A DNA stretch of 16,431 nt, taken from the NCBI GenBank assembly GCA_903916665.1, contig CAIWXP010000170.1:1-16431 (forward strand), given 5' to 3'. The position numbers and the translations under genes are program-made. The stretch is from Candidatus Iainarchaeum sp. (GTDB lineage: Archaea; Iainarchaeota; Iainarchaeia; Iainarchaeales; 0-14-0-20-30-16). Under the pieces are notes generated by a model. That model worked only from the letters and a program-made list of their open reading frames with translations, did no database searches and was not told the DNA's origin. Shown here one piece after another: positions 1,134-16,091 of this stretch. Every line of letters begins with the position of its first letter. Position 1 is the stretch's first letter.

Positions 1134-2051
1134 ATGGTTGAAAATATTTGTAAAGAATGTGGTGCAAAAACATTTGTAACTGATAAAGAAACTGGTGAAA
1201 TGGTTTGTAAGAATTGTGGAACTGTTATTGAAGGGGATGCAGTTGATTTATCAAAGGAATGGAGAACATTTGATTCTGATGAATTTAATGATAAGGCTAG
1301 AACCGGTGGTCCTATGCAACACTCAAAATTAAATAAAGGTGTTAGCACAATGATCGAAAGAGGCGGAAGAGATGCTAGAGGTAACAAGTTAAGTGCAGAA
1401 ACTAGAGAACAAATGTATAGATTAATTAGATGGCATAAAAGAACTGCTGTTTCAAACTCAGTTCAAAGAAATTTATCTATTGCATTAACTGAATTAAGAA
1501 GAATGGCACAGTATTTGAATATTCCTGAATCATTGGTTGAACAAGCAGCTGTATTGTATAGAAAAACAGTTGAGAAAGAATTAATTAGAGGAAGATTAAT
1601 TGAAGCTGTTGTTGCTGCAGTATTATATGCTGTTTGTAGAACTGCAAATATTCCTAGAACATTAAATGAAATGGCTGAAGCTTCTGGTTTAACTAAAAAA
1701 GATATTGGAAGAAATTATAGATATTTAGTTAGAGAATTGGAAATGTCTGTTCCTTTAACAAATCCTATATATTATATTTCAAGATTTGCATCTGAATTAA
1801 ATTTATCTGGTGAAGTTCAAGAAGAAGCTAGAAAGATATTAAATGATGCAATATTAAAAGGTTTAATTTCTGGAAGAGGCCCTACGGGTGTGGCGGCAGC
1901 TGCTGTATATATTGCTGCTTTGTTAAAGAATGAGAAAAGAACTCAAAAGCAAGTTGCAAATGTTGCAGGCGTAACAGAAGTTACTATTAGAAATAGATAT
2001 AGAGAATTAAAAGAAAAATTAAACCTAGAAGTGGAAGACGAACCGCAATAA
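1134..2051 (+). CDS. tfb: Transcription initiation factor IIB (TFB)
   Basis: N-terminal Zn ribbon CKECG-x15-CKNCG. Two cyclin-like repeats follow (RNLSIALTELRRMAQYLNIP...; ISRFASELNLSGEVQEEARKIL...GRGPTGVAAAAVYIAA) with a C-terminal HTH (QKQVANVAGVTEVTIRNRYRELKE). GGTGAT lies 3 nt upstream of the ATG. Confidence 0.95.
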   Translation: MVENICKECGAKTFVTDKETGEMVCKNCGTVIEGDAVDLSKEWRTFDSDEFNDKARTGGPMQHSKLNKGVSTMIERGGRDARGNKLSAETREQMYRLIRWHKRTAVSNSVQRNLSIALTELRRMAQYLNIPESLVEQAAVLYRKTVEKELIRGRLIEAVVAAVLYAVCRTANIPRTLNEMAEASGLTKKDIGRNYRYLVRELEMSVPLTNPIYYISRFASELNLSGEVQEEARKILNDAILKGLISGRGPTGVAAAAVYIAALLKNEKRTQKQVANVAGVTEVTIRNRYRELKEKLNLEVEDEPQ

Positions 2052-2460: not shown

Positions 2461-3627
2461 TTATTTAAATTCGATAATTTCCATTCTATCAATTGCATCT
2501 TTTGATAATGAATCAATATCTAATTCTTTTTCCAATTCTTTTACTTTATGCAAATCAGCCTTTGTTGTTGGGTGCTTAGGGGTAAAAAGAGTACAACAAT
2601 CTCCTTGTGGGATTATTGATGTTTCATAGCTTCCTATTTGTTTTGCAATTATAATTATTTCTTCTTTGTTATAACCAACCAAAGGACGCAAAACAGGTAT
2701 GGTAATTGCTTCTTGAATAGTACACATATTATCCAATGTTTGTGAACTTACTTGCGCCAACGCTTCTCCTGTAACCAGCGCTTTTATTTTTTCTTGCTTT
2801 GCTAACAATTCTGCAATTCTTAACATAAATCTTCTGTATAAAACAATTCTTTCTTCTGGTGGCGTTTTCATTTTAATTTCCATTTGTATTTTATAAAACG
2901 GAACAATATATAATTTAGATTTGGGTTGATATTTTAATAATAATTTACAAAGATCCTTTGATTTTATTATACTAGCATCATTGGTTGCTGGCACACTATG
3001 ATAATGAATATAATTTAATTCACAACCTCTTTTTAACATTAAAAAACTTGATACTGGTGAATCAATACCAGCACTCATTAATGATAATAATTGCCCTGAA
3101 CAACCCACTGGCAAACCATCAATTCCTTTTATAACCTCAAAATAAATATAGGTTCCTTTTTCTCGCATCTCAATGAATATTTCTTTATCCGGGTGAGAAA
3201 GATTTGCTTTTCTATCTACAACATTTCCAATATCTTTTGCTATTTCTTGACTTGACAATTTAACTGTATTATCATGTCTTGCCCTTACTGCAAAGGTTTC
3301 ATTTTCTTTTATCCAATCAATATAATTCTTTTCAACAAATTTAATAATTTCTTCTAAAGATTTTGTTTCTAAAAAATAGGCTGGTGATAGAGATGAAATT
3401 CCAGGAATATTTTGTATAATATTTGTTGCATCAATAACATTTTTTGTTTCTAGAAATAATTTATCATGGGTTGTAATTAATTTGTATTTTATCTTTTCAC
3501 GCGCTAGTGCACACTCTATATTATTAGACAATTTTCTTATAAATAAATCTCTTACACTTGAAGACTTAATAAAAAGCTCACCAAATGAAATTAATATGCC
3601 ATTCATAGTTTCACAATCAATATACAA
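2461..3627 (-). CDS. thiI: tRNA sulfurtransferase ThiI (tRNA 4-thiouridine synthase): THUMP plus PP-loop ATPase, no rhodanese domain
   Basis: 388 aa. The N-terminus has the ferredoxin-like/THUMP pattern (ILISFGELFIKSSSVR...). PP-loop motif is LMSAGIDSPVSS. The conserved C-terminal motif is GDCCTLFTPKHP. The ATG at 3606 (MNGILISFGE...) is a plausible alternative start. Confidence 0.9.
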   Translation of the reverse strand: MYIDCETMNGILISFGELFIKSSSVRDLFIRKLSNNIECALAREKIKYKLITTHDKLFLETKNVIDATNIIQNIPGISSLSPAYFLETKSLEEIIKFVEKNYIDWIKENETFAVRARHDNTVKLSSQEIAKDIGNVVDRKANLSHPDKEIFIEMREKGTYIYFEVIKGIDGLPVGCSGQLLSLMSAGIDSPVSSFLMLKRGCELNYIHYHSVPATNDASIIKSKDLCKLLLKYQPKSKLYIVPFYKIQMEIKMKTPPEERIVLYRRFMLRIAELLAKQEKIKALVTGEALAQVSSQTLDNMCTIQEAITIPVLRPLVGYNKEEIIIIAKQIGSYETSIIPQGDCCTLFTPKHPTTKADLHKVKELEKELDIDSLSKDAIDRMEIIEFK

Positions 3628-3630
3628 ATA

Positions 3631-3650
3631 ATTAATAAATATTTATTAAT
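3631..3650. promoter_or_regulatory. Perfect 20-bp AT palindrome in the thiI / wHTH-regulator divergent intergenic region
   Basis: ATTAATAAATATTTATTAAT is identical to its reverse complement. It sits 4 nt from the thiI ORF start and ~37 nt upstream of the ATG at 3687. It is a candidate symmetric TATA/BRE element or an operator. Confidence 0.4.
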
Positions 3651-3686
3651 CGGAAAGATTTTAAACACTTGTTATATTATGTATTT

Positions 3687-4157
3687 ATGCATAATAAACA
3701 TGTTGGAATATTATTCATTGTTGTGGCAGGAATTTTAGGATTAATTATTTTTCTTTTTAATAATGCATTAAATAAAATTGTTACCGATACTTGTACCGAA
3801 GGGCCTACCTGTCCTATGTATAGCACAATTGCATTTAGCACCTATTTGAGTATTGGTATGATAATAATTGTCATTTTAGCAGGTTTTGCGTTTATTTTCT
3901 TTTTCAAAGACAATCAAAAACAAACAAAAAAAATAGATGAATCTGCATATCAAACAATAATGAAAACATTAAAAGAAGACGAAAAATTAACATTAAAAAC
4001 AATCATTGCTAACGGCGGCACAATTTTTCAATCAGATTTGGTTGAAAAAACTAATTATCCAAAGGTTAAAATAACAAGAATCTTAGATCATTTGGAATCA
4101 AAAGATATTATAGAAAGAAAAAGACGTGGAATGACCAATGTTGTTATTCTAAAGTAA
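3687..4157 (+). CDS. Membrane-anchored winged-helix (MarR/TrmB-like) transcriptional regulator, COG2512-like architecture
   Basis: Two TM helices (ILFIVVAGILGLIIFLF and YLSIGMIIIVILAGFAFIFFF) flank a loop TDTCTEGPTCPMY. The C-terminal ~65 aa is a wHTH (LTLKTIIANGGTIFQSDLVEKTNYPKVKITRILDHLESKDIIERKRRGMTNVVILK). The ORF track starts at TTG 3669; the first ATG is at 3687. Confidence 0.7.
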   Translation: MHNKHVGILFIVVAGILGLIIFLFNNALNKIVTDTCTEGPTCPMYSTIAFSTYLSIGMIIIVILAGFAFIFFFKDNQKQTKKIDESAYQTIMKTLKEDEKLTLKTIIANGGTIFQSDLVEKTNYPKVKITRILDHLESKDIIERKRRGMTNVVILK

Positions 4158-4210
4158 TTGTATGCTTGAGCAAAGCGAAACATGCTTGTTTTCTTTGGAC
4201 AGACGGTGTA

Positions 4211-4229
4211 CTTTCTTTGGGAAAGAAAG
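4211..4229 (+). other. Perfect 8-bp stem / 3-nt loop hairpin inside an unusually GC-richer intergenic segment
   Basis: CTTTCTTT-GGG-AAAGAAAG. No oligo-T tract follows it. It is embedded in 4158-4299, which also carries three pairs of short direct repeats (see findings). Confidence 0.4.
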
Positions 4230-4311
4230 GCCTCGTGAAACTAGTTACAAACAAGACTATAATCTCTGTTACAAATATATCTAATTATTAAATATTGGTT
4301 TGAGGGGTTTT

Positions 4312-4911
4312 ATGACTAAGAAAAACTGCTGCAAAAATAATAACAAAGATGCTGCAAAAAAAGGAATATTGTTTGGGCTATTAGCGCACTTGCCTTGTAT
4401 TGCACTAATTATAATTACAATAATTGGAATAAGTCTAGGGGGTACTTTACTTACAACTTTTATGAGTTCGTATTTGTTTTATGGCTTAATTGGATTATCT
4501 TTTGTTTTAGTTACTATATCTGCGATAATTTATTTGAAGAGACAAAATTCTTTGAATATTGAGGGTATAAAAGATAATTGGAAATATTTAGCAATATTAT
4601 ATGGAATTGCAATTATAATAAATATTCTATTCCTAACAGTTATATTTCCATACTCTACTAATCTAGTTAGCGCATCACAAAATAAAATTACATTTGCTGA
4701 AAATTTACAAATAATTAATTTGCAAGTTAATATTCCTTGTGCAGGACACGCAATATTAATTAGTAGTGAATTAAAAAAAGATTTAGGAATAAAAAATGTT
4801 GAATATAATTTTCCTAGTTCGTTTAAAATATCCTTCAATCCCAAAGAAACAACAAAACAAAACATCCTAAATAATCCCATATTCAAAGAATACTCTGCAA
4901 AAGAGATATAA
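4312..4911 (+). CDS. Three-TM membrane protein: cytoplasmic CC motif, in-membrane HLPC motif and a C-terminal HMA-like (ferredoxin-fold) domain with C-x-x-H. A MerT/MerP-like metal relay protein
   Basis: The SD GAGGGG at 4302-4307 precedes the ATG at 4312; the ORF track begins at TTG 4300. The N-terminus is MTKKNCCKNNNKDAAKK. TM1 is GILFGLLAHLPCIALIIITIIG. The C-terminal segment QIINLQVNIPCAGHAILISSELKKDLGIKNVEYNFPSSFKISFNPKETTKQNI aligns by eye to the HMA beta-alpha-beta-beta-alpha pattern, with PCAGH in place of MxCxxC. It ends 22 nt upstream of copA. Confidence 0.6.
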   Translation: MTKKNCCKNNNKDAAKKGILFGLLAHLPCIALIIITIIGISLGGTLLTTFMSSYLFYGLIGLSFVLVTISAIIYLKRQNSLNIEGIKDNWKYLAILYGIAIIINILFLTVIFPYSTNLVSASQNKITFAENLQIINLQVNIPCAGHAILISSELKKDLGIKNVEYNFPSSFKISFNPKETTKQNILNNPIFKEYSAKEI

Positions 4912-4933
4912 ATAATAAAAGAGTTGATGATTT

Positions 4934-7096
4934 ATGAATAAAAATTTTGGTATCAAAGGAATGCATTGTAGCAATTGCGCACAAACTATTGAAAAGGGAT
5001 TAAAGAGTGAAGCTGGGATAAAAAATGCAAATATTAACTTTGCATTATCTAATTTAAATTTAGATTTTGACGAATCAAAAACCAATATAACCAAAATTAA
5101 AAATAAAATTAAATCTTTAGGTTACCAAGCAGAAGAAGAAAATGATTTTCAAAAATTAGAAGAAGAACAGAAAAACTATTATAAAAAACGTTTAATAGTT
5201 AGTGTGATTTTTGCAATACCTGCTTTTATAATCGGCATGTTATTAATGTGGTTAGGTATTGATATTCCATTTAGAAATTTTATTTTATTTATATTGGCCA
5301 CACCAATTCAATTTTATATTGGTTATGATTTTTACAAAAGCGCATTTAATGCGCTAAAAAATAAAACTGCAAACATGGATTCATTAATTGCTCTAGGAAC
5401 TAGCGCAGCCTATTTTTTTAGTGTCTATAGTATATTTTTTGCTCCACAATTAGGACAATATTTTGAAACTTCTGCGATATTAATTACTTTGGTAATATTG
5501 GGAAAATATTTAGAAGCAAAGGCAAAAGGAAAAGCTTCTGAAGCCATAAAAAAATTATTAGATTTAAGCCCAAAAATGGCAATTGTAATTAAAAATGGCA
5601 AAGAATTATCATTATCTATTGACAATATTAAATTAGGAGATATTGTATTGGTAAAACCAGGAGAAAAAATACCTATTGATGGAATTATTATCTCTGGAAA
5701 TACATCAGTAGATGAATCCATGATAACTGGAGAAAGTATGCCCATTGAAAAAATAATAAATGATTTTGTTATTGGTGGAACAATAAATAAATTTGGGACA
5801 ATAAAATTTAGAGCAACAAAAATTGGAGAAAACACAACATTAAGTAATATAATAAAAATAGTTCAAGAGGCACAAACTAAAAAAGCACCAATTCAAAGAT
5901 TTGCAGACAAGGTTTCAAAATATTTTGTGCCTGTTGTAATTTGTCTTGCAATAATAACTTTTATAATTTGGTGTTTTGTATTTGGTAATTTCTCATTTGG
6001 TTTAATTAATGCAATTTCAGTATTAGTTATTGCATGTCCTTGTGCATTGGGGTTAGCGACACCTACTGCGATAATGGTATCAACAGGAAAGGCAGCAAAT
6101 AATGGTTTTTTAATAAGAACTCCTGAAACTTTAGAAATTATTCACAAAGCAAAATACATTGTTTTTGATAAGACTGGAACAATAACAAATGGTAAACCAA
6201 TTATTACAAATATTATCGAAATAAATGCTACCAAAAAAGAAGTTTTAGAAATTTCTGCTAGTCTGGAAAATCATTCTGAACATAGTTTGGCCGAACCAAT
6301 AATTAATGAAGCAAAAAAACAAAATTTAAAATTAAAAATAATAACTAATTTTGAAGCATTGCCTGGTTATGGCATTACTGCAAAAATAAATACTGAAAAA
6401 TATTTTTTAGGAAATATTAAATTTATTTTAAAAAATAAAATAGAAATAAAAAATAGAAAACAAATTGAAGAATTGGAATCACGGGGAAATACTGTTATGA
6501 TTTTAACAGATAAAAAAAATATTTTGGGGCTAATATGTGTTGCAGATACAATTAGGGACAATGCAAGAAAAACAATTGATACGTTACATAAATTAAATCT
6601 TGAAATCTATTTAATTACTGGTGATAATATACGGGTCGCAAATGCACTCGCAATACAAGCAGGAATTAAAAATGTTTTTGCAGATGTTTTGCCACAGGAT
6701 AAATTAATGCATGTAAAAGAGTTGCAAAAAAAAGGAAAAGTAATTATGGTTGGTGATGGTATAAATGATTCTCCTGCTTTGACACAGGCCGATATTGGAA
6801 TAGCAATGGGTACTGCAAGTGATATTGCAATTGAAAGTGGAAATATTGTTTTATTAAAGAATGATTTGGAAAATATTCCCAGAGCGATAAAATTAAGTAA
6901 ATTAACAATTTCAAAAATCAAACAAAATATGTTCTGGGCTTTGGCCTATAATGTTATTGGAATACCTATTGCTGCGGGCGCTTTATACTTTACAACTGGT
7001 TGGCTATTATCTCCAATTATTGCCAGTATAACTATGGCACTAAGTTCGATAAGCGTAGTTGGAAATTCAATATTGCTAAAATATAGGAAATTATAG
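4934..7096 (+). CDS. copA: Copper-translocating P1B-type ATPase (CopA)
   Basis: 720 aa with one N-terminal HMA domain (GMHCSNCAQTIEKGL). Other motifs: TGE (MITGESMP), the CPC transmembrane metal site (ACPCALGLATP), the DKTGT phosphorylation site, HP-region sequences, and the GDGINDSPAL hinge. Confidence 0.95.
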   Translation: MNKNFGIKGMHCSNCAQTIEKGLKSEAGIKNANINFALSNLNLDFDESKTNITKIKNKIKSLGYQAEEENDFQKLEEEQKNYYKKRLIVSVIFAIPAFIIGMLLMWLGIDIPFRNFILFILATPIQFYIGYDFYKSAFNALKNKTANMDSLIALGTSAAYFFSVYSIFFAPQLGQYFETSAILITLVILGKYLEAKAKGKASEAIKKLLDLSPKMAIVIKNGKELSLSIDNIKLGDIVLVKPGEKIPIDGIIISGNTSVDESMITGESMPIEKIINDFVIGGTINKFGTIKFRATKIGENTTLSNIIKIVQEAQTKKAPIQRFADKVSKYFVPVVICLAIITFIIWCFVFGNFSFGLINAISVLVIACPCALGLATPTAIMVSTGKAANNGFLIRTPETLEIIHKAKYIVFDKTGTITNGKPIITNIIEINATKKEVLEISASLENHSEHSLAEPIINEAKKQNLKLKIITNFEALPGYGITAKINTEKYFLGNIKFILKNKIEIKNRKQIEELESRGNTVMILTDKKNILGLICVADTIRDNARKTIDTLHKLNLEIYLITGDNIRVANALAIQAGIKNVFADVLPQDKLMHVKELQKKGKVIMVGDGINDSPALTQADIGIAMGTASDIAIESGNIVLLKNDLENIPRAIKLSKLTISKIKQNMFWALAYNVIGIPIAAGALYFTTGWLLSPIIASITMALSSISVVGNSILLKYRKL

Positions 7097-7105
7097 CAAT
7101 ATATT

Positions 7106-7113
7106 TTTATATA
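7106..7113 (+). promoter_or_regulatory. TATA-box-like element upstream of the DsbC-like gene
   Basis: TTTATATA lies ~47 nt upstream of the ATG at 7160. The SD GGTGGT at 7151-7156 is 3 nt from the ATG. This suggests an independent promoter downstream of copA. Confidence 0.4.
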
Positions 7114-7159
7114 GATAGAACATTTTTCTTTATACTTATTTTATATTTAAGGTGGTAAT

Positions 7160-8332
7160 ATGGCAAAGAAAGAAGTTAAAGTAAAAAAAGAACATACTGG
7201 CAAATGTTGTGAAAACGTTTGGATGTATGTTAGTATTGCTTTAGGTATCGCTTTTATAATTGCATTGGTATTTGCAATTGTAGGTGCTGCTAAAGCTAGT
7301 TCTGGAACTACAGGAATTGGAGCAAATAATGCTGCACAGGTAGTTTTAGATTTAATGAAAAAAACTCAAGGCATTGATGCAAATGTAATTGGTGCTGTTG
7401 AAGTAAATGGATTATATAAAATCACATTAAATGCAAAAGATCAGAATGCGGATATTTATGTTACATTAGATGGACAAAATATAATGCCTGGTAATGCAGT
7501 ATTTAATGTAAAAGATATTGAAAATACTGCTGTGACTGATAAAAATGCACCCGTTGATCAAAACACAACTCCTGCAACTACACCAACAGTATATACTTTA
7601 CCAAAAATGATTGGTCAAATGCCTGTTGAAGGAAACACAGCATCAAAAATAACTGTTGTTGAATTCTCAGATTTCCAATGCCCTTTTTGTGGTATGGCTT
7701 TTGGTGCTCCTTGGACTGCAGAATATAAAACATCACAATATGCATCAATAATTGGTGGAACACAAAAGATAGAAGAATTAGCATTAGCTGGTAAAATCGC
7801 TTTTGTACATTTCCCTGTTGCATTTTTAGATGAACAAAGCCCAACAAAGGAATCACACAAAGCATCAAACGCAGCACTATGTGCTAGAGATCAAAACAAA
7901 TATTTCGAAATGCACAATGTGTTATTTAACGCACAAACAAAAACAGAAAACGATGGAAAATATGAAACAGATAAATTAAAATTATTGGGTGCTAAAGTTG
8001 AAGGTTTAGACTTGAATGTATTTAATTCTTGTTTAGATTCTCAAAAATATTTCTCAACAATAGACGCAATAACTCAAGATGCAAGTGATACTTCAAAAGC
8101 AAATGTTGGTGGATTTGGAACTCCTGCATTTTACATTGTTGTTGACGCATCAATAGGAAAAGCAAAATTAGAAAGTGTTTTAACACCAATCAGAGCAGAA
8201 GTTGTAAAAGCACAACCTAAAGATACAACTAGTTATACTTTTGCACCTACAGCAGATGGTTTAAAATATGTAATTATTGCAGATCCAGAATATGCAGTAA
8301 TGCAAGTAGTAATTAATGGTTTAACTGCTTAA
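7160..8332 (+). CDS. Membrane-anchored thiol:disulfide oxidoreductase/isomerase: DsbA-family thioredoxin fold with CPFC active site and a DsbC-N-like domain
   Basis: 390 aa. The N-terminal cytoplasmic segment is MAKKEVKVKKEHTGKCCENVW, followed by a TM helix (MYVSIALGIAFIIALVFAIVGAA). A segment resembling the DsbC N-terminal dimerisation domain follows (VEVNGLYKITLNAKDQNADIYVTLDGQNIMPG). After a Thr/Pro linker comes the thioredoxin-like domain with ITVVEFSDFQCPFCG and the cis-Pro region GTPAFYIV. Confidence 0.8.
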   Translation: MAKKEVKVKKEHTGKCCENVWMYVSIALGIAFIIALVFAIVGAAKASSGTTGIGANNAAQVVLDLMKKTQGIDANVIGAVEVNGLYKITLNAKDQNADIYVTLDGQNIMPGNAVFNVKDIENTAVTDKNAPVDQNTTPATTPTVYTLPKMIGQMPVEGNTASKITVVEFSDFQCPFCGMAFGAPWTAEYKTSQYASIIGGTQKIEELALAGKIAFVHFPVAFLDEQSPTKESHKASNAALCARDQNKYFEMHNVLFNAQTKTENDGKYETDKLKLLGAKVEGLDLNVFNSCLDSQKYFSTIDAITQDASDTSKANVGGFGTPAFYIVVDASIGKAKLESVLTPIRAEVVKAQPKDTTSYTFAPTADGLKYVIIADPEYAVMQVVINGLTA

Positions 8333-8350: not shown

Positions 8351-8391
8351 ATGTTGCAAAAAAGCTTTGCAACATTTATTTTTCTTTTTTT
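8351..8391 (+). terminator. Intrinsic-terminator-like hairpin plus T-tract after the DsbC-like gene
   Basis: Perfect 10-bp stem: ATGTTGCAAA (8351-8360) pairs with TTTGCAACAT (8366-8375) around the loop AAAGC. T-rich TTATTTTTCTTTTTTT follows at 8376-8391. Confidence 0.6.
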
Positions 8392-8406
8392 ATTTAATTG
8401 ATTTTT

Positions 8407-9085: not shown

Positions 9086-9107
9086 CATATGAACTATATT
9101 TCATATG
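9086..9107. promoter_or_regulatory. Inverted repeat overlapping the start codon of the ArsR-family gene (candidate autoregulatory operator)
   Basis: CATATGAA (9086-9093) and TTCATATG (9100-9107) are exact reverse complements separated by CTATAT. TATA-like TTTTATATTTA at 9056-9066 and ATATATAAA at 9074-9082 lie just upstream. No SD is visible, so the mRNA may have a short leader or none. Confidence 0.45.
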
Positions 9108-9413
9108 ACTAATTGTTCATGTGATTCATTCTTTGTAAACTTTAGTAATAAGGCTAGACTTAATATTATGCTTTTATTAAAAACTAGGGCCTGTGATGTT
9201 ACTACTATTAGTAGAAATTTAAAAATAGAACAAAGTTTAGTTTCGCACAATATGACCAAATTATTATCCTGTAATTTAGTGCAATCAAAAAGAGAAGGCA
9301 AAACTAAGATATATAGTTTAAATAAAAAAGTAGCTTTACCAATTTTAGATATTTATGAAAAAAACATTTTAAAAAATTGTTGTAGTATTTGTAAAAATGA
9401 AAAAAAGAAATAA
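9105..9413 (+). CDS. ArsR/SmtB-family winged-helix regulator, cysteine-rich (7 Cys)
   Basis: 102 aa. The HTH core ACDVTTISRNLKIEQSLVSHNMTKLLSCNLVQSKREGKTKIYSLN matches the ArsR pattern (xCDLxxxLxxSQSxVSHHLxxLxxAGLVxxRREGRxxxYxL). There is an N-terminal CSC pair and a C-terminal CCSIC cluster. The gene ends 11 nt before the iscS ATG. Confidence 0.85.
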   Translation: MTNCSCDSFFVNFSNKARLNIMLLLKTRACDVTTISRNLKIEQSLVSHNMTKLLSCNLVQSKREGKTKIYSLNKKVALPILDIYEKNILKNCCSICKNEKKK

Positions 9414-9424
9414 AGGTGATTTTT

Positions 9425-10606
9425 ATGACTAAGATTGTATATTTAGATAATGGTGCAACAACGCAGATTGATCCTGAAGTGTTAAAAGCTATGCTACCTT
9501 ATTTCACAGAGGCCTATGGCAATGCAGCATCATTACACGCAAAGGGAGTGGAAGCTAAGGATGCTTTGGAAAAAGCAAGAAAAGTTATTGCAAAAAGTAT
9601 AAATGCAGAACAAGAAGAAATAATATTTACTTCTGGTGGAACAGAATCAAATAATTTTGCTTTGAAAGCAATTGCCTTTGCAAACAAAGATAAAGGTAAT
9701 CATATTATTACAACTAAAGTGGAACATAAATGTATTTTAGAAACCTGTAAATGGTTAGAGGCGCAAGGATTTGAAATTACTTATTTAAATGTTGATAAAG
9801 ATGGTTTTATTAAATTAGATGAATTAGAAAATTCAATAACAAAAAAAACTATTTTAGTTTCTGTTATCCACGGCAATAACGAAATTGGAACAATAATGGA
9901 TTTACAAAGTATTGGAAATATTTGTAAAAAAAATGATGTTTATTTTCACACAGATGCTTGCCAAAGTTATACTAAAACAGAAATAGATGTTAAAAAACAA
10001 AACTTAGATTTAGTAACAATTAACGCACATAAAATACACGGACCCAAAGGTGTTGGTGCATTATTTGTTAAAAAAGGAACAAAAATAAAACAATGGCAAC
10101 ATGGTGGAGCGCACGAATTTAATTTAAGAGCAGGAACAGAAAATGTTTCTGGTATTGTTGGATTTGCAAAAGCTGTTGCCATATCAGATAAAAAACACAT
10201 TGAATATGTAACAAAATTAAGAGACAAATTAATTTCAGGAATGTTAGAAATACCAGATGTAATATTAAACGGACCCACTGGTAATAAAAGACTTTGTAAT
10301 AATGCAAACTTTTCATTCAAAGGTATTGAAGGGGAAGCAATTGGTGGTTATTTGGATTCTTTTGGTGTTTGTTCATCAACGGGTTCTGCATGTTCATCAA
10401 TTAAACTAGAACCAAGCTATGTTTTGAAAGCGATAGGAAAAACTAATGAACAGGCCAATGGTTCGTTAAGATTAACTTTAAGTAAATACACAACAGAAGA
10501 AGAAATTGATTTTGTTTTAAAAAAAATGCCAGAGATAGTAAAAAAATTAAGAAGTTTTTCTCCAATTTATAAGGTGGTTAACTATGTACTCAAAAAAAGT
10601 AATTAA
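9425..10606 (+). CDS. iscS: Cysteine desulfurase, class V aminotransferase (IscS/NifS type)
   Basis: N-terminus is IVYLDNGATT. The PLP-lysine motif is NAHKIHGPKGVGAL. The active-site Cys loop is SSTGSACSS, and the C-terminal motif is SLRLTLSKYTTEEEID. The SD GGTGAT at 9415-9420 is 4 nt from the ATG at 9425; the ORF track starts at GTG 9416. Confidence 0.92.
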   Translation: MTKIVYLDNGATTQIDPEVLKAMLPYFTEAYGNAASLHAKGVEAKDALEKARKVIAKSINAEQEEIIFTSGGTESNNFALKAIAFANKDKGNHIITTKVEHKCILETCKWLEAQGFEITYLNVDKDGFIKLDELENSITKKTILVSVIHGNNEIGTIMDLQSIGNICKKNDVYFHTDACQSYTKTEIDVKKQNLDLVTINAHKIHGPKGVGALFVKKGTKIKQWQHGGAHEFNLRAGTENVSGIVGFAKAVAISDKKHIEYVTKLRDKLISGMLEIPDVILNGPTGNKRLCNNANFSFKGIEGEAIGGYLDSFGVCSSTGSACSSIKLEPSYVLKAIGKTNEQANGSLRLTLSKYTTEEEIDFVLKKMPEIVKKLRSFSPIYKVVNYVLKKSN

Positions 10607-11291
10607 TATTTTTAAAAATCCAAAACATGTTGGAAAATTAAATGACGCAAATGGTATTGGTGAAGTTGGCAATATCAAATGTGGAGATATGATGAAAGTA
10701 TATTTAAAAGTAAAAAATAACATCATTGAAGATGTTAAAGTTGAAACCTATGGTTGTGTTGCAGCTATCGCTGCTAGTGATACAATGTGTAAATTAGTAA
10801 AAGGAAAAACATTGGAAGAAGCAGAAGCATTAACCTATAAAAAAATAGTTGAAGACCTGGGAGAAATGCCCAAGATAAAATATCATTGTTCTATCATGGG
10901 TACAGAAGCATTACACAAAGCAATTAAAGATTATAGAGATCATCACAAAAATGAAATTAATAAAGGAGTTGGTAAAATGAAATATGATGAAAAAACTACA
11001 TTGGCAAAAGCATTGGATGCTATTGATGGACCAGAAATATTAGCTAAATATCATGTTCCTTGTTTAGGTTGTCATTTTGCATCTCAAGAATTAAATTCAT
11101 TAACATTAAAGGATATTCATGATGCCTACGGTGTTGATTTGAAAAGTATTTTAAAAGACCTTAACAATTCTTCTTTGGAAAAGAAGAAACAAGAAATAAA
11201 AACACCCGCAAAGAAACTAATTGCAAAAAAAGTAATTAAAAAAACAGTTTCAAAAACAAAAACTACAAAATCAAAAAAGAGTAAGAAATAA
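10584..11291 (+). CDS. iscU: Fe-S cluster scaffold IscU/NifU-N fused to a DUF1858-like CxxC (redox disulfide) domain and a lysine-rich tail
   Basis: The IscU core carries the three cluster Cys (NIKCGDMM, YGCVAAIAASD, KYHCSIMG). Residues ~134-196, TLAKALDAIDGPEILAKYHVPCLGCHFASQELNSLTLKDIHDAYGVDLKSILKDLN, resemble the DUF1858 / hybrid-cluster-protein-associated redox disulfide domain. The tail is KKKQEIKTPAKKLIAKKVIKKTVSKTKTTKSKKSKK. The SD GGTGG precedes the ATG, and the gene overlaps the iscS 3' end by 23 nt. Confidence 0.88.
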   Translation: MYSKKVINIFKNPKHVGKLNDANGIGEVGNIKCGDMMKVYLKVKNNIIEDVKVETYGCVAAIAASDTMCKLVKGKTLEEAEALTYKKIVEDLGEMPKIKYHCSIMGTEALHKAIKDYRDHHKNEINKGVGKMKYDEKTTLAKALDAIDGPEILAKYHVPCLGCHFASQELNSLTLKDIHDAYGVDLKSILKDLNNSSLEKKKQEIKTPAKKLIAKKVIKKTVSKTKTTKSKKSKK

Positions 11292-13793: not shown

Positions 13794-16091
13794 ATGATAA
13801 AGAAAGAAATTTTATTTTTTAAAGAAATAAATAAAACCATGATACCTGAAGTTGGTGGAAAGGGTGCAAATTTAGGAGAAATGTCAAATCATAAATTTCC
13901 AATACCCTATGGTTTTGTTGTTACATCCTATGCCTATGAAAAAAATGCAATTGATTGTAAAATATTAAAAAAAATTGAAGAATTAGAAAAAAATGTTGAT
14001 GTAAATAATATGAAAGAATTGAATAAAAAAAGTGAAGAATTAAAAAAATTAATAATGGGTTCAAAAATAAGTTCAGAATTACAAACTAAAATTACAACTG
14101 CCTACGATAAACTAGGAAAAAATGTTTTAGTTGCAGTTAGAAGTTCAGCAACTGCAGAAGATTTACCTGGTGCAAGTTTTGCAGGACAACAGGATACATT
14201 TTTAAATGTTCAGGGTAAAGATAAATTATTAGAATATGTAAAAAGATGTTGGGCATCATTATTTAATCCGAGAGCTATTTTTTATAGACACAAACAAGGC
14301 TTTAATATTGAACAGGTTAAATTAGCAGTTGTTGTTCAACAACAAATTGGCTCAGAAATTTCCGGAATAATGTTTACTGCAAATCCAACCACAAGTAATG
14401 TAAGCGAAATTGTTGTTGAAGCTGTTTATGGTTTGGGAGAAGCAATTGTTTCAGGTAGTGTAACACCAGATACATTTATTATTGATAAAAAAACAATGAA
14501 AATAAAAACAAGAGCAATTAGTAAACAAACTTGGAAATTAATTAGAGATATGAAAGGAACAACAAAAAAAGAAACTGTTGCAACAAACATACAATCAAAA
14601 CAAAAAGTTTCGGATGCAATTGTTTTACAATATGCAAAAATTGGTGCTGCCATTGAAAAACATTATAAATGTCCACAGGATATTGAATGGGCAATAGAAA
14701 AAAATAAATTATATATCGTTCAAGCAAGACCAATAACTACATTGAATGCAGAAAATAAACAAACTAGTACAGGAAGTAGTATTACTGCCAAAGCAATTTT
14801 ATCTGGATTAGGAGCTAGTTCAGGAATAAAATCAGGTCCTGTAACAATTGTTCATAATTTAAAAGAATTGGATAAAGTAAAAACAGGAGATGTAATGGTT
14901 ACAAAAATGACTACTCCTGATATGGTTCCTCAAATGAAAAAAGCCATTGCAATTGTTACTGATGAGGGAGGAATAACCTGTCATGCAGCAATAGTTTCTC
15001 GTGAATTAGGAATTCCTGCCGTTGTAGGAACAGAAACTGCAACTAAAGTATTAAAAGATAAGGAAATAATTACTGTTGATGCAAATAATGGAAAAGTTTA
15101 CAAAGGACAGGTAATCCATAAAGACAATGTTGTTGAAATGCACAAAGAATTAAATTTAAAAAGTTTTGATTTTGTAACATCAACAAAAGTAAAAGTAAAT
15201 TTAGCATTTAGTGATGCGGCACAAAGAGCTGCCGATACACACCCAGACGGAATTGGATTAATGCGAGCAGAACATATTTTAACGGCTGCAAAAGAACACC
15301 CTTATTATATGATAAAAAAAGGAAAATCAAAGGAATTACAAACTCTTTTAGAAACAGAATTAGAAAAAATTATGAAGCTATTCAAAAATAAGCCTGTTTA
15401 CTATAGAACTTTTGATGCACGAACAGATGAATATAGAAATATTAAAGGTGGAGAATTTGAACCTAAAGAAGATAACCCTATGCTAGGTTGGCACGGAATA
15501 AGAAGAGATTTGGATGAGCCTGAAATGTTAAAAACACAGTTTAGAGCAATTAGATCTTTAATTAAAAAAGGCTACACAAACATAGGTGTGATGGTTCCAT
15601 TTACACAAAATGTAAAAGAATACATAGAAACAAAAAAGATTGCAGAATTTGTGGGTTTAAGACCCCATAAAGATTGTTTCTTTGGTATTATGGTTGAAAC
15701 TCCTGGCTGTTCTTTAACAATTGAGGAATATATTGATGCAAAAATAGATTTTGTAAGTTTTGGAACCAATGATCTAACACAATTGACTTTGGGCTTAGAT
15801 AGAAACAACGATAAAATTCAAAAATGGTTTACTGAATTACACCCTGCAATATTAAAACAAATTGCCCATGTAATTAGCTATTGTAAACCTGTTGGTGTAA
15901 GAACCTCAATTTGTGGTCAAGCTGGATCAAACCCAATAATGGTTAAAGAATTAGTTAAGATGGGAATTGATAGTATTTCTGCAAATATTGATGCTGTTGA
16001 AAAAATAAGAGAAACAGTATACAATACAGAAAAAGAAATGATTCTTGATGCTGTTAAGAAACAAACTCTTTTAAAAAAGGCTAAATTCTAG
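13794..16091 (+). CDS. ppsA: Phosphoenolpyruvate synthase (pyruvate, water dikinase)
   Basis: 765 aa. The N-terminal ATP-grasp region has GGKGANLGEM and VAVRSSATAEDLPGASFAGQQDTFLNV. The phosphohistidine swivel domain has GGITCHAAIVSRELGIPAVVG. The C-terminal PEP-utilising TIM barrel has GIGLMRAEH, MVETP and SFGTNDLTQ. The SD GGAGG lies upstream. Confidence 0.95.
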   Translation: MIKKEILFFKEINKTMIPEVGGKGANLGEMSNHKFPIPYGFVVTSYAYEKNAIDCKILKKIEELEKNVDVNNMKELNKKSEELKKLIMGSKISSELQTKITTAYDKLGKNVLVAVRSSATAEDLPGASFAGQQDTFLNVQGKDKLLEYVKRCWASLFNPRAIFYRHKQGFNIEQVKLAVVVQQQIGSEISGIMFTANPTTSNVSEIVVEAVYGLGEAIVSGSVTPDTFIIDKKTMKIKTRAISKQTWKLIRDMKGTTKKETVATNIQSKQKVSDAIVLQYAKIGAAIEKHYKCPQDIEWAIEKNKLYIVQARPITTLNAENKQTSTGSSITAKAILSGLGASSGIKSGPVTIVHNLKELDKVKTGDVMVTKMTTPDMVPQMKKAIAIVTDEGGITCHAAIVSRELGIPAVVGTETATKVLKDKEIITVDANNGKVYKGQVIHKDNVVEMHKELNLKSFDFVTSTKVKVNLAFSDAAQRAADTHPDGIGLMRAEHILTAAKEHPYYMIKKGKSKELQTLLETELEKIMKLFKNKPVYYRTFDARTDEYRNIKGGEFEPKEDNPMLGWHGIRRDLDEPEMLKTQFRAIRSLIKKGYTNIGVMVPFTQNVKEYIETKKIAEFVGLRPHKDCFFGIMVETPGCSLTIEEYIDAKIDFVSFGTNDLTQLTLGLDRNNDKIQKWFTELHPAILKQIAHVISYCKPVGVRTSICGQAGSNPIMVKELVKMGIDSISANIDAVEKIRETVYNTEKEMILDAVKKQTLLKKAKF

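Follow-up and report, generated by a model that had tools for sequence, protein, structure and literature searches.

A probable Cu(I)/Ag(I) homeostasis regulon with a predicted membrane-tethered winged-helix regulator in Candidatus Iainarchaeum sp.

Genes at the locus and the loci compared

The window analysed here, a 16,431-nt archaeal fragment from Candidatus Iainarchaeum sp. (contig CAIWXP010000170.1), has a GC content of approximately 28% and contains a cassette that encodes a regulator with a winged helix-turn-helix (wHTH) domain, a protein with three transmembrane (TM) segments, designated TM3, and the copper ATPase CopA. A gene for a thiol:disulfide oxidoreductase, designated Dsb390, follows (Table 1). 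A previous reading made from the letters of the window (the sequence-only reading) had placed these four co-oriented open reading frames (ORFs) in a single module. All four were found, with every Cys/His motif that had been quoted for them. No source-given names were recorded for the window proteins.

Their co-orientation was by itself uninformative, because the same-strand run consists of eight genes and goes on through nth, ArsR, IscS and IscU to position 11291. The claim that a TRASH domain and a soluble CopZ are missing was borne out among the scanned proteins, that is, those of the four-gene region and its immediate flanks, with the outer ORFs of the window lying outside the scan.

Table 1. 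Coordinates of the genes and sequence elements in the window
Feature	Position	Strand	Remarks
TFB	1134-2051		
TATA-like box of the regulator gene, TTTTAAAC	3659..3666	+	Read from the sequence, ~25 nt before ATG 3687
Regulator ORF	3669-4157	+	Likely true start ATG 3687, 156 aa
Regulator gene	3687..4157	+	Predicted N-terminal two-helix membrane hairpin and C-terminal DUF7343/MarR-like wHTH
Loop codons C36-T-E-G-P-T-C42-P-M44 (CTEGPTCPM)	3792..3818	+	Between the two helices; candidate sensor loop
Promoter-operator of the structural genes	4236..4273	+	Predicted; between the regulator gene and TM3, in register with the family consensus
Palindrome TGAAACTAGTTACA	4236-4249	+	12-bp core at 4237-4248
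TATAAT	4258-4263	+	
Half-site GTTACA	4268-4273	+	
TM3 ORF	4300-4911	+	Likely true start ATG 4312, 199 aa
TM3 gene	4312..4911	+	MerT/MerP-like membrane protein, three TM segments, C-terminal HMA-fold domain
CopA	4934-7096	+	P1B-1 Cu(I)/Ag(I)-exporting ATPase by family match; one N-terminal HMA domain
Dsb390	7160-8332	+	Membrane-anchored DsbA-like thiol:disulfide oxidoreductase by domain, one TM segment, CPFC

Two sets of loci were used for comparison. The TM3-centred scan, with one genome per GTDB species, returned 32 loci, which represented 31 distinct species-level loci. Their six-frame ORFs were searched with the window proteins and family profiles. The wHTH-centred scan of metagenomes gave 80 loci, and the 29 with at least 4 kb downstream were used for the gene-content counts.

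The regulator, its putative operator and the structural genes

The regulator matched Pfam DUF7343 (PF24034) with 46.5 bits against a cutoff of 27.6 (E=3.2e-12), which made it a member of that family, and fell slightly below the cutoffs of Pfam MarR (21.6 against 24.6) and MarR_2 (23 against 27). Two hydrophobic TM segments were predicted in it. The AlphaFold2 model (pLDDT 84) consisted of two helices (residues 3-35 and 43-72) joined by a Cys loop, a linker, and the wHTH domain (residues 85-155), which was matched by Foldseek to domains of the MarR/TFIIE type.

A total of 909 homologues were found. They were typically 150-176 aa long and approximately 50% identical over the full length, and are named 'MarR family' or 'uncharacterized membrane protein' in their sources. 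An archaeal CopR or CopT identity was ruled out for the regulator: Pfam and NCBIfam gave only DUF7343/MarR-like matches and no TRASH domain, and there are two TM helices. Most homologues have a TTTAAATA-type box upstream, at the same distance as the TATA-like box in the window. The short distance from this box to the ATG would imply a leaderless regulator transcript.

In the loop between the two helices, C36, G39, C42 and M44 were invariant among 39 homologues, and H38 was conserved in at least 90%. The family consensus at the tip of the hairpin was C-x-[H/E]-G-x-x-C-P-M, with Glu replacing H38 in the window regulator and in three others (P0294, L063 and L072). Because the wHTH domain has to be in the cytoplasm to reach DNA, the Cys loop would be extracytoplasmic. 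The charge distribution of the regulator agreed with an outside loop.

An intergenic sequence, GAAACTAGTT(T/A)C, was first spotted in the window and several other loci. The 12-bp palindrome GAAACTAGTTTC was then counted in 944 kb of loci, allowing up to one mismatch and with shuffles as the control. There were 93 matches, compared with a mean of 3.0 in the shuffles. With its flanking bases (T-GAAACTAGTTTC-A), the conserved palindrome is 14 bp long. It occurred once in the window at the same stringency, where 0.07 was expected.

The palindrome lay within 1.5 kb downstream of 80 of the 104 wHTH genes, at a median of 24 nt past the stop codon, and in the divergent upstream region of a further 5. 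It was absent from the TM3 loci that showed no wHTH gene (L010, L011, L015, L016, L024, L029, L034 and L040). When the 7 wHTH-less TM3 loci with at least 300 nt upstream were taken, the association between palindrome and wHTH gene gave a Fisher p of 2e-5. This indicated that the palindrome tracks the regulator gene and not TM3.

Alignment of 87 sites revealed a fixed order of elements: T-GAAACTAGTTTC-A, xACAAT, a TATA box (T.ATAAG), two nucleotides of any kind, and a third half-site, GTTTCA, at +31 to +36, which was in register in 76 sites. The ATG followed approximately 20 nt beyond this half-site. The window and L072 shared an identical T-to-A change in both right half-sites. In a divergent regulator subfamily (L001, L005, L007 and L028), ATGGTTTCA repeats were kept around the TATA box. 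Since the putative binding sites bracket the TATA box, their position suggested repression by exclusion of TBP and TFB.

Two tandem wHTH paralogues were seen in each of L063, L072 and L104, at least one of them with the Glu variant of the loop (CTEGxxCPM). The presence of the operator ahead of the second copy in L063 and L072 suggested autoregulation or subfunctionalisation.

The relatively GC-rich spacer of 142 nt between the regulator and TM3 ORFs (4158-4299) was also considered as a structured RNA or tRNA. This was rejected: there was no Rfam match and no tRNA, and with a fold z-score of -0.40 the whole spacer folded no better than shuffles. At 4186-4224 (+) it contains a T-run (TTTTCTTT) and a hairpin with an 8-bp stem (CTTTCTTT GGG AAAGAAAG), which are possible termination signals. 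In L002 the spacer after the regulator is filled by a methyltransferase gene.

The first gene past the operator was TM3 in approximately 51 cases, HMA or CopA in 11, a small Cys-rich protein in approximately 10, and a DUF411/CopG-like protein in 1. The operator-led genes are overwhelmingly thiophilic-metal genes.

The small Cys-rich proteins (46-65 aa; CPIC...YC[RK]LCGM...FCCxxC) were found directly past the operator in L021, L051, L060, L067, L092 and L113, and are candidate metallochaperones. A TRASH identity was tried for them and rejected. The Pfam support was non-significant (E=0.15), and they are therefore described only as treble-clef/zinc-ribbon-like. The proteins encoded behind the operator in L083, L084, L094 and L120 were 68-89 aa long, with a single TM helix and a tail rich in Cys and Gly (e.g. 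SCSCGCGGACNGNCGIEGCNC). They belonged to no Pfam family, and look like membrane-anchored metallothioneins. The DUF411/CopG-like protein (Pfam E=1e-22) is encoded past the palindrome at 5052-5516 of L046 (+ strand of the locus); it is TM-anchored and contains the motif CGCC. The opposite strand carries an operon of CopZ, HMA-DsbD_2, CopA and a DsbA-like protein.

The composition of the regulon bears on a different role for the regulator, that of a sensor of envelope redox or disulfide stress, whose two loop Cys would switch between dithiol and disulfide and to which copper would matter only indirectly. These invariant Cys lie on the oxidising side of the membrane at a spacing of six residues, which would suit such a switch. 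Oxidised MarR was among the fold matches of the wHTH domain, Cu(II) inactivates E. coli MarR by driving the oxidation of Cys, and DsbA-like genes are occasionally present in the regulon. We nevertheless consider this role improbable. Next to the Cys pair, the loop has a co-conserved His/Glu and an invariant Met, residues that typically bind Cu(I) and that a disulfide switch does not require, and the regulon is made up almost wholly of metal-binding or metal-transport proteins.

TM3 contains the motifs CC (residues 6-7), HLPC (26-29) and PCAGH (142-146), which correspond to three putative ligand sites: the CC tail (C6, C7), H26-x-x-C29 in TM1, and C143-x-G-H146 in the C-terminal domain. Among 60 members of the family, H26 and C29 of TM1, and P142, C143, G145 and H146, were invariant. 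A word-based search recovered only eight relatives. The exhaustive profile search, over 1.84 billion representatives, gave 347 clusters (at 50% identity), and thus the TM3 family is small.

Three long helices were seen in the AlphaFold model of TM3 (pLDDT 75 overall and approximately 88 in the C-terminal domain), and residues 133-198 were modelled as beta-alpha-beta-beta-alpha-beta, which is the HMA fold. Foldseek aligned this domain with those of CopA-N, MerP and ATP7B at TM-scores of 0.74-0.83, with C143 and H146 superposed on the classical CxxC positions of HMA. Its motif, IPC[AS]GH (C-x-x-H), departs from the GMxCxxC pattern. The window protein had no match to Pfam HMA (PF00403), and a profile search of the PDB reached only E=0.005-0.04.

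Two other assignments of TM3 were tried and rejected. Membership in a Pfam family was represented only by a sub-threshold match to DUF5518. Homology of the membrane part to DsbD_2/CcdA was not supported by hhalign, which, run against HMA-DsbD_2 proteins, aligned the HMA domains only.

In the longer TM3 relatives, the exact place of MTKKNCCK in the window protein is taken by a canonical N-terminal HMA domain, and the N-terminus in the family is either a CC tail or a full HMA domain. The CC tail, which alternates with the HMA domain, is plausibly a metal site. Six Lys lie ahead of TM1 and four basic residues in the TM2-TM3 loop, and the protein is neutral elsewhere. This distribution, together with the lack of a signal peptide before the N-terminal HMA domain of the long forms, would fit an N-in/C-out topology. 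Some relatives are fused C-terminally to cupredoxin or FtrD-like domains.

TM3 was collinear with NCBIfam MerTP_fusion (E=2.5e-7), which 32 of the 60 members matched, while NF010314 MerT was matched by 1 of the 60. The plan is the same: an external HMA-fold domain comes after three TM helices. On these grounds TM3 might import mercury or another thiophilic metal in the manner of MerT/MerP, in a cassette that is mer-like and not a copper one. Several findings make this quite improbable. The MerTP_fusion score was 30.5 bits, far below the cutoff of 180, and Pfam MerT gave no match for the window protein at E<=0.1. The Cys pairs of MerT are missing: TM1 has H26-x-x-C29 for Cys-Cys, the TM2-TM3 loop (KRQNSLNIEGIKDNWK) has no Cys, and the external site is C-x-x-H instead of CxxC. 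MerA was not seen among the annotated neighbours in the Pfam and profile searches, in which it was not itself a query. Finally, the partner of TM3 is a P1B-1 Cu(I) ATPase or, in bacterial-labelled contigs, CsoR.

The copA gene starts 22 nt past TM3. Its product scored 624 bits with TIGR01511 (cutoff 397) and 636 with TIGR01525 (cutoff 346), which assigned it to the family. The Pfam domains E1-E2_ATPase, Hydrolase and HMA were recognised, and the motifs GMHCSNC, CPC, DKTGT, YN..GIP and MALSS were present.

The three genes were linked well beyond the window. A wHTH homologue was present in 23 and a CopA core in 22 of the 31 TM3-centred loci. Conversely, 24 of the 29 wHTH-centred loci contained a copper gene of some kind (TM3, CopA or HMA); TM3 was present in 18, CopA in 21, and both in 15. 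Loci without TM3 had its slot taken by a small CopZ-like/HMA protein, an HMA-DsbD_2-cupredoxin protein, or both. The TM3 loci were labelled Aenigm-, Woese-, Pace-, Micr-, Nano- and Iainarchaeota and Methanofastidiosia, with a few others, including two bacterial. In these two bacterial-labelled contigs (L024 and L029), TM3 lies directly after a CsoR/RcnR-family repressor, which is an independent link to metal-regulated expression. The cupredoxin and FtrD-like fusions, and the proteins that take the slot in TM3-less loci, are further independent links to metals.

The proposal that homologues of the 162-aa regulator, the 200-aa TM3 and the 390-aa oxidoreductase flank copA therefore held for the first two, in most loci and several phyla, and was not supported for the third. 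CopA does have two non-canonical partners, the regulator and TM3, that are real and recur across loci.

Inherited synteny among related small genomes could also produce such adjacency without any functional coupling. Large blocks (ThiI, nth, ArsR, IscS/U and PPDK) are syntenic in close relatives, and ThiI-type genes recur beside the cassette. This account appears very improbable, as the trio is kept across phyla while the flanks differ completely, and its orientation varies (divergent in L019, L025 and L028). Against a fixed backbone the cassette is gained or lost as a unit, and a common operator ties the regulator to the structural genes.

ThiI adjoins the window cassette at 2461-3627 (-), and ThiI or a shorter ThiI_fer+THUMP gene was seen in L001, L005, L007, L013 and L030; in L030 the ThiI-type gene sits between the regulator and TM3. 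This adjacency, seen in the window lineage and several distant ones, may reflect ancestral synteny or a link to sulfur trafficking. In L080 and L096 (downstream of TM3) and at 8073-9233 of L047, a ZIP-family transporter or ArsP-type permease with a Cys/His-rich N-terminus replaces CopA. The regulon may thus serve other metals in some lineages.

The oxidoreductase and the flanking genes

Dsb390 matched Thioredoxin_4 with 44.8 bits against a cutoff of 23.2 (E=2e-11) and DSBA with 27.6 against 25.6. C174 and C177 (of CPFC), C241, C291 and the T321-P322 pair (cis-Pro) were invariant among its orthologues, of which the full-length ones were 355-393 aa long. The DsbC-N-like domain that had been described in it stood only as a weak similarity of the N-terminal domain: the match to Pfam DsbC_N reached 15 bits (cutoff 25) and that to NCBIfam DsbG 26.3 bits (cutoff 124; E=3.8e-6, residues 66-179), and none was above the cutoff.

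Like DsbA/BdbD and ScsC, Dsb390 combines Thioredoxin_4/DSBA, CPFC, a cis-Pro (GTP) and a TM anchor. It differs from them in the weak DsbC_N/DsbG-like N-region, insertions, a C-terminal extension, and a position independent of the cop cassette. ScsC of Salmonella is linked to copper tolerance. No DsbD-like gene was found among the scanned window ORFs by general scans, which included no dedicated comparison with Scs proteins.

The motifs KNCCKNN of TM3 and GKCCENV of Dsb390 were both present just ahead of TM1, as had been stated. The shared K-x-CC-x-N was rejected as a link between the two proteins, since the cytoplasmic CC tail of Dsb390 was found in only 8 of 11 close orthologues and nothing else connects them. 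Conservation of the Cys/His/Met positions thus extended to the regulator and TM3, where they are invariant or nearly so, and not to this tail.

The sequence-only reading had joined Dsb390 to the other three genes in a module for Cu(I) export and extracytoplasmic disulfide repair. Copper mis-oxidises envelope thiols, and ScsC and DsbC protect them. In L002 and the window the Dsb gene lies directly behind the cassette, at approximately 63 nt, so that read-through is possible. Moreover, canonical DsbA-like genes (Thioredoxin_4, CPFC, TM-anchored) lie between TM3 and CopA in L036, L077, L112 and L114, and in L046 one such gene, within an operon headed by the operator, overlaps the end of copA. DsbA-like genes are embedded in these operons more commonly than chance would suggest.

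On the other hand, orthologues of Dsb390 hold a position in a fixed backbone of ThiI(-), Dsb, nth, ArsR, IscS, IscU, NFACT(-), KaiC-like and PPDK, whatever stands in front of them. The genes ahead of Dsb are wHTH, TM3 and CopA in the window; wHTH, a methyltransferase and TM3 in L002; wHTH only in L041; and none in L043. L041 and L043 thus keep the oxidoreductase without TM3 and CopA, and in L042 the orthologue lies in an unrelated context. A Dsb-like gene of any kind was found in only 4 of the 31 TM3-centred loci (within 8 kb; adjacent in L036 alone) and in 3 of the 29 wHTH-centred loci. The subtype differs from that of the embedded genes by its extra N-domain and inserts. The 63-nt gap after copA contains T-runs, a TATA-like stretch and a Shine-Dalgarno sequence, and no operator was found ahead of Dsb390 in the window scan with up to one mismatch.

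The backbone position kept without TM3 or CopA, the few loci with a Dsb gene, and the lack of an operator indicated that Dsb390 is a neighbour and not a core member. We interpreted it as a separate housekeeping envelope oxidoreductase of this lineage, and regard the four-gene module as unlikely. The DsbA-like genes embedded in five loci pointed to a copper/thiol link in a minority of lineages. To that extent the proposed coupling of copper export to disulfide repair survives, though not for the 390-aa gene of the window, and 'Cu buffering plus disulfide repair' is something that we infer.

Right after the Dsb stop codon, at 8352-8392 (+), a perfect hairpin (TGTTGCAAA...TTTGCAACA) precedes a long T-run. 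This arrangement looks like an intrinsic terminator, and a transcription unit may end here.

Farther downstream, at 9105-11291 (+), IscS begins 2 nt after the end of the gene for an ArsR/SmtB regulator (CSCD at the N-terminus, CCSICK at the C-terminus) and itself overlaps IscU. The window IscU carries a long extension at its C-terminus, with a tail rich in Lys. This block, conserved in relatives, may be a metal- or Fe-S-sensing isc operon. The PPDK of L041 (12274-15104) carries an intein, with Intein_splicing/LAGLIDADG matches; that of the window (13794-16091) is without one.

Interpretation of the cassette

From these comparisons we conclude, with a probability of approximately 0.7, that 3687-7096 of the window represents a type of regulon for Cu(I)/Ag(I) homeostasis that is widespread among DPANN archaea and a few other uncultivated ones. 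The earlier interpretation is thus retained for a three-gene core and given up for the oxidoreductase as a core member.

A number of points weigh against this conclusion. The evidence is all comparative, and the loci are not fully independent, since many of the source organisms are related and some of the synteny, that with a ThiI neighbour, is inherited. Approximately 17% of the long wHTH loci are without a nearby copper gene, and L041 has a close wHTH homologue without TM3, CopA or operator. TM3 is found also with ZIP or ArsP-type permeases and without CopA, and therefore need not act through CopA. The window regulator itself has Glu for the usual His in its loop and its operator is also a variant, so that altered specificity or decay is possible. 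The position of the sites cannot alone decide between a repressor and an activator. The precedent for a MerT-like relay is an importer, and import agrees poorly with an export operon.

A homeostasis regulon of this kind could work as follows. The regulator would be made from its own leaderless promoter and inserted in the membrane as a helical hairpin, the loop at whose outer tip would bind Cu(I) or be oxidised by copper. The change would reach the winged helix in the cytoplasm via TM2 and the linker. This domain may sit as a dimer on the two elements to either side of the TATA box, namely the palindrome and the half-site GTT(T/A)CA, where it would most likely repress by blocking TBP/TFB. The metal would lift the repression, and TM3-copA would be transcribed.

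CopA would then pump Cu(I) out of the cell. TM3 would most likely serve as a membrane-integrated chaperone, with ligand pairs on both faces and within the membrane. On the inside, its CC or HMA would hand Cu(I) to CopA in the manner of CopZ. On the outside, its HMA-like C-x-x-H would accept Cu(I) or buffer it, in the way of MerP, CusF or CopL. The His/Cys pair in TM1 may permit a relay across the membrane in either direction. On the oxidising side, the exchange of CxxC for Cys/His pairs would prevent dead-end disulfides.

In its full form this proposal has three parts. The wHTH protein would be an archaeal membrane-tethered one-component sensor that detects extracytoplasmic Cu(I) through a 9-residue Cys/His/Cys/Met loop and acts on a TBP/TFB promoter through TGAAACTAGTTTCA. 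TM3 would serve as a minimal conduit or chaperone for Cu(I), built of three helices. These two proteins and CopA would make up the main copper-defence regulon of DPANN archaea, in place of TRASH-CopR. We put this forward tentatively, at slightly less than even odds.

The archaeal cop cluster, known from Sulfolobus, Pyrococcus, Thermococcus and Ferroplasma, consists of CopR/CopT (HTH plus TRASH), a CopZ/CopM/CopT chaperone and CopA (PMC7830388). The window cassette is similar in having a regulator gene beside a chaperone-like gene and a P1B-1 ATPase, with putative sites at the promoter of the structural genes. It differs in that the regulator has no TRASH domain and is neither Lrp-like nor soluble; it is DUF7343/MarR-like, with a predicted hairpin tether and external Cys/His/Met loop. 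The chaperone slot is occupied by an integral membrane protein, and the putative operator is TGAAACTAGTTTCA.

TM3 shares with MerT-MerP and the MerTP fusion (NF033556) the three TM segments, a TM1 ligand pair next to Pro and the external HMA-fold domain, and the extra cytoplasmic HMA domain of its long forms resembles NmerA of the mer system. Unlike those of MerTP, its ligands are His/Cys and Cys/His rather than Cys/Cys, and its partner is a copper exporter.

Among the proteins that fill the TM3 slot (from regulator/CopZ to CopA) in TM3-less loci are those of the COG2836 type (HMA-DsbD_2-(DUF2318/cupredoxin)), which belong to the CsoR regulon in Firmicutes and are functionally uncharacterised (PMC4938975). 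Their plan is like that of TM3, with a cytoplasmic HMA domain, an intramembrane His/Cys motif and an external metal-binding domain. They have at least six TM helices, compared with three in TM3, and hhalign detected no homology between the membrane parts.

The bacterial regulators ToxR and CadC are membrane-tethered one-component proteins in which a winged helix is controlled by the extracytoplasmic sensor part of the same protein. The regulator would resemble them in its membrane-held winged helix and a putative sensor part in the same polypeptide. It differs in that the hairpin comes first and the wHTH last, with two TM segments and not one, and a loop of 7-9 residues in place of a folded periplasmic domain. 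Its wHTH is MarR-like and not OmpR-like, and its promoters are archaeal TBP/TFB promoters.

Accessory Cu(I) binders encoded with CopA are CupA of S. pneumoniae, CopL of S. aureus and the periplasmic CusF. TM3 would be comparable as a Cu(I)-holding accessory at the membrane surface, on the entry or the exit side. Unlike TM3, they have cupredoxin, DUF1541 and OB folds and are singly anchored or soluble, and none has sites on both faces and within the membrane.

In the searched literature, no paper contained 'DUF7343' or the operator sequence, the papers on DPANN and CopA gave gene lists only, and the searches on MerTP and DsbD_2 returned no account of the system. In regulator class, operator and accessory protein alike, it departs from the archaeal cop cluster, and none of the three is described in that literature.

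To our knowledge, copper regulation in archaea is known almost only through the soluble TRASH-domain CopR of cultured thermophiles. The evidence from DPANN points to a different sensor architecture, membrane-tethered and apparently outward-facing, with a sharply conserved operator. From it, the membrane regulators of the DUF7343 type and the unannotated TM3 family receive a probable role. The DNA site, the ligand residues and the members of the regulon are all defined, which makes the proposal directly testable; this is rare for uncultivable organisms. The use of Cys/His in place of CxxC on an external HMA fold may provide a design lead for metal sites in oxidising compartments. The predicted architecture also suggests a possible way for very small cells to sense toxic Cu(I) while it is still outside.

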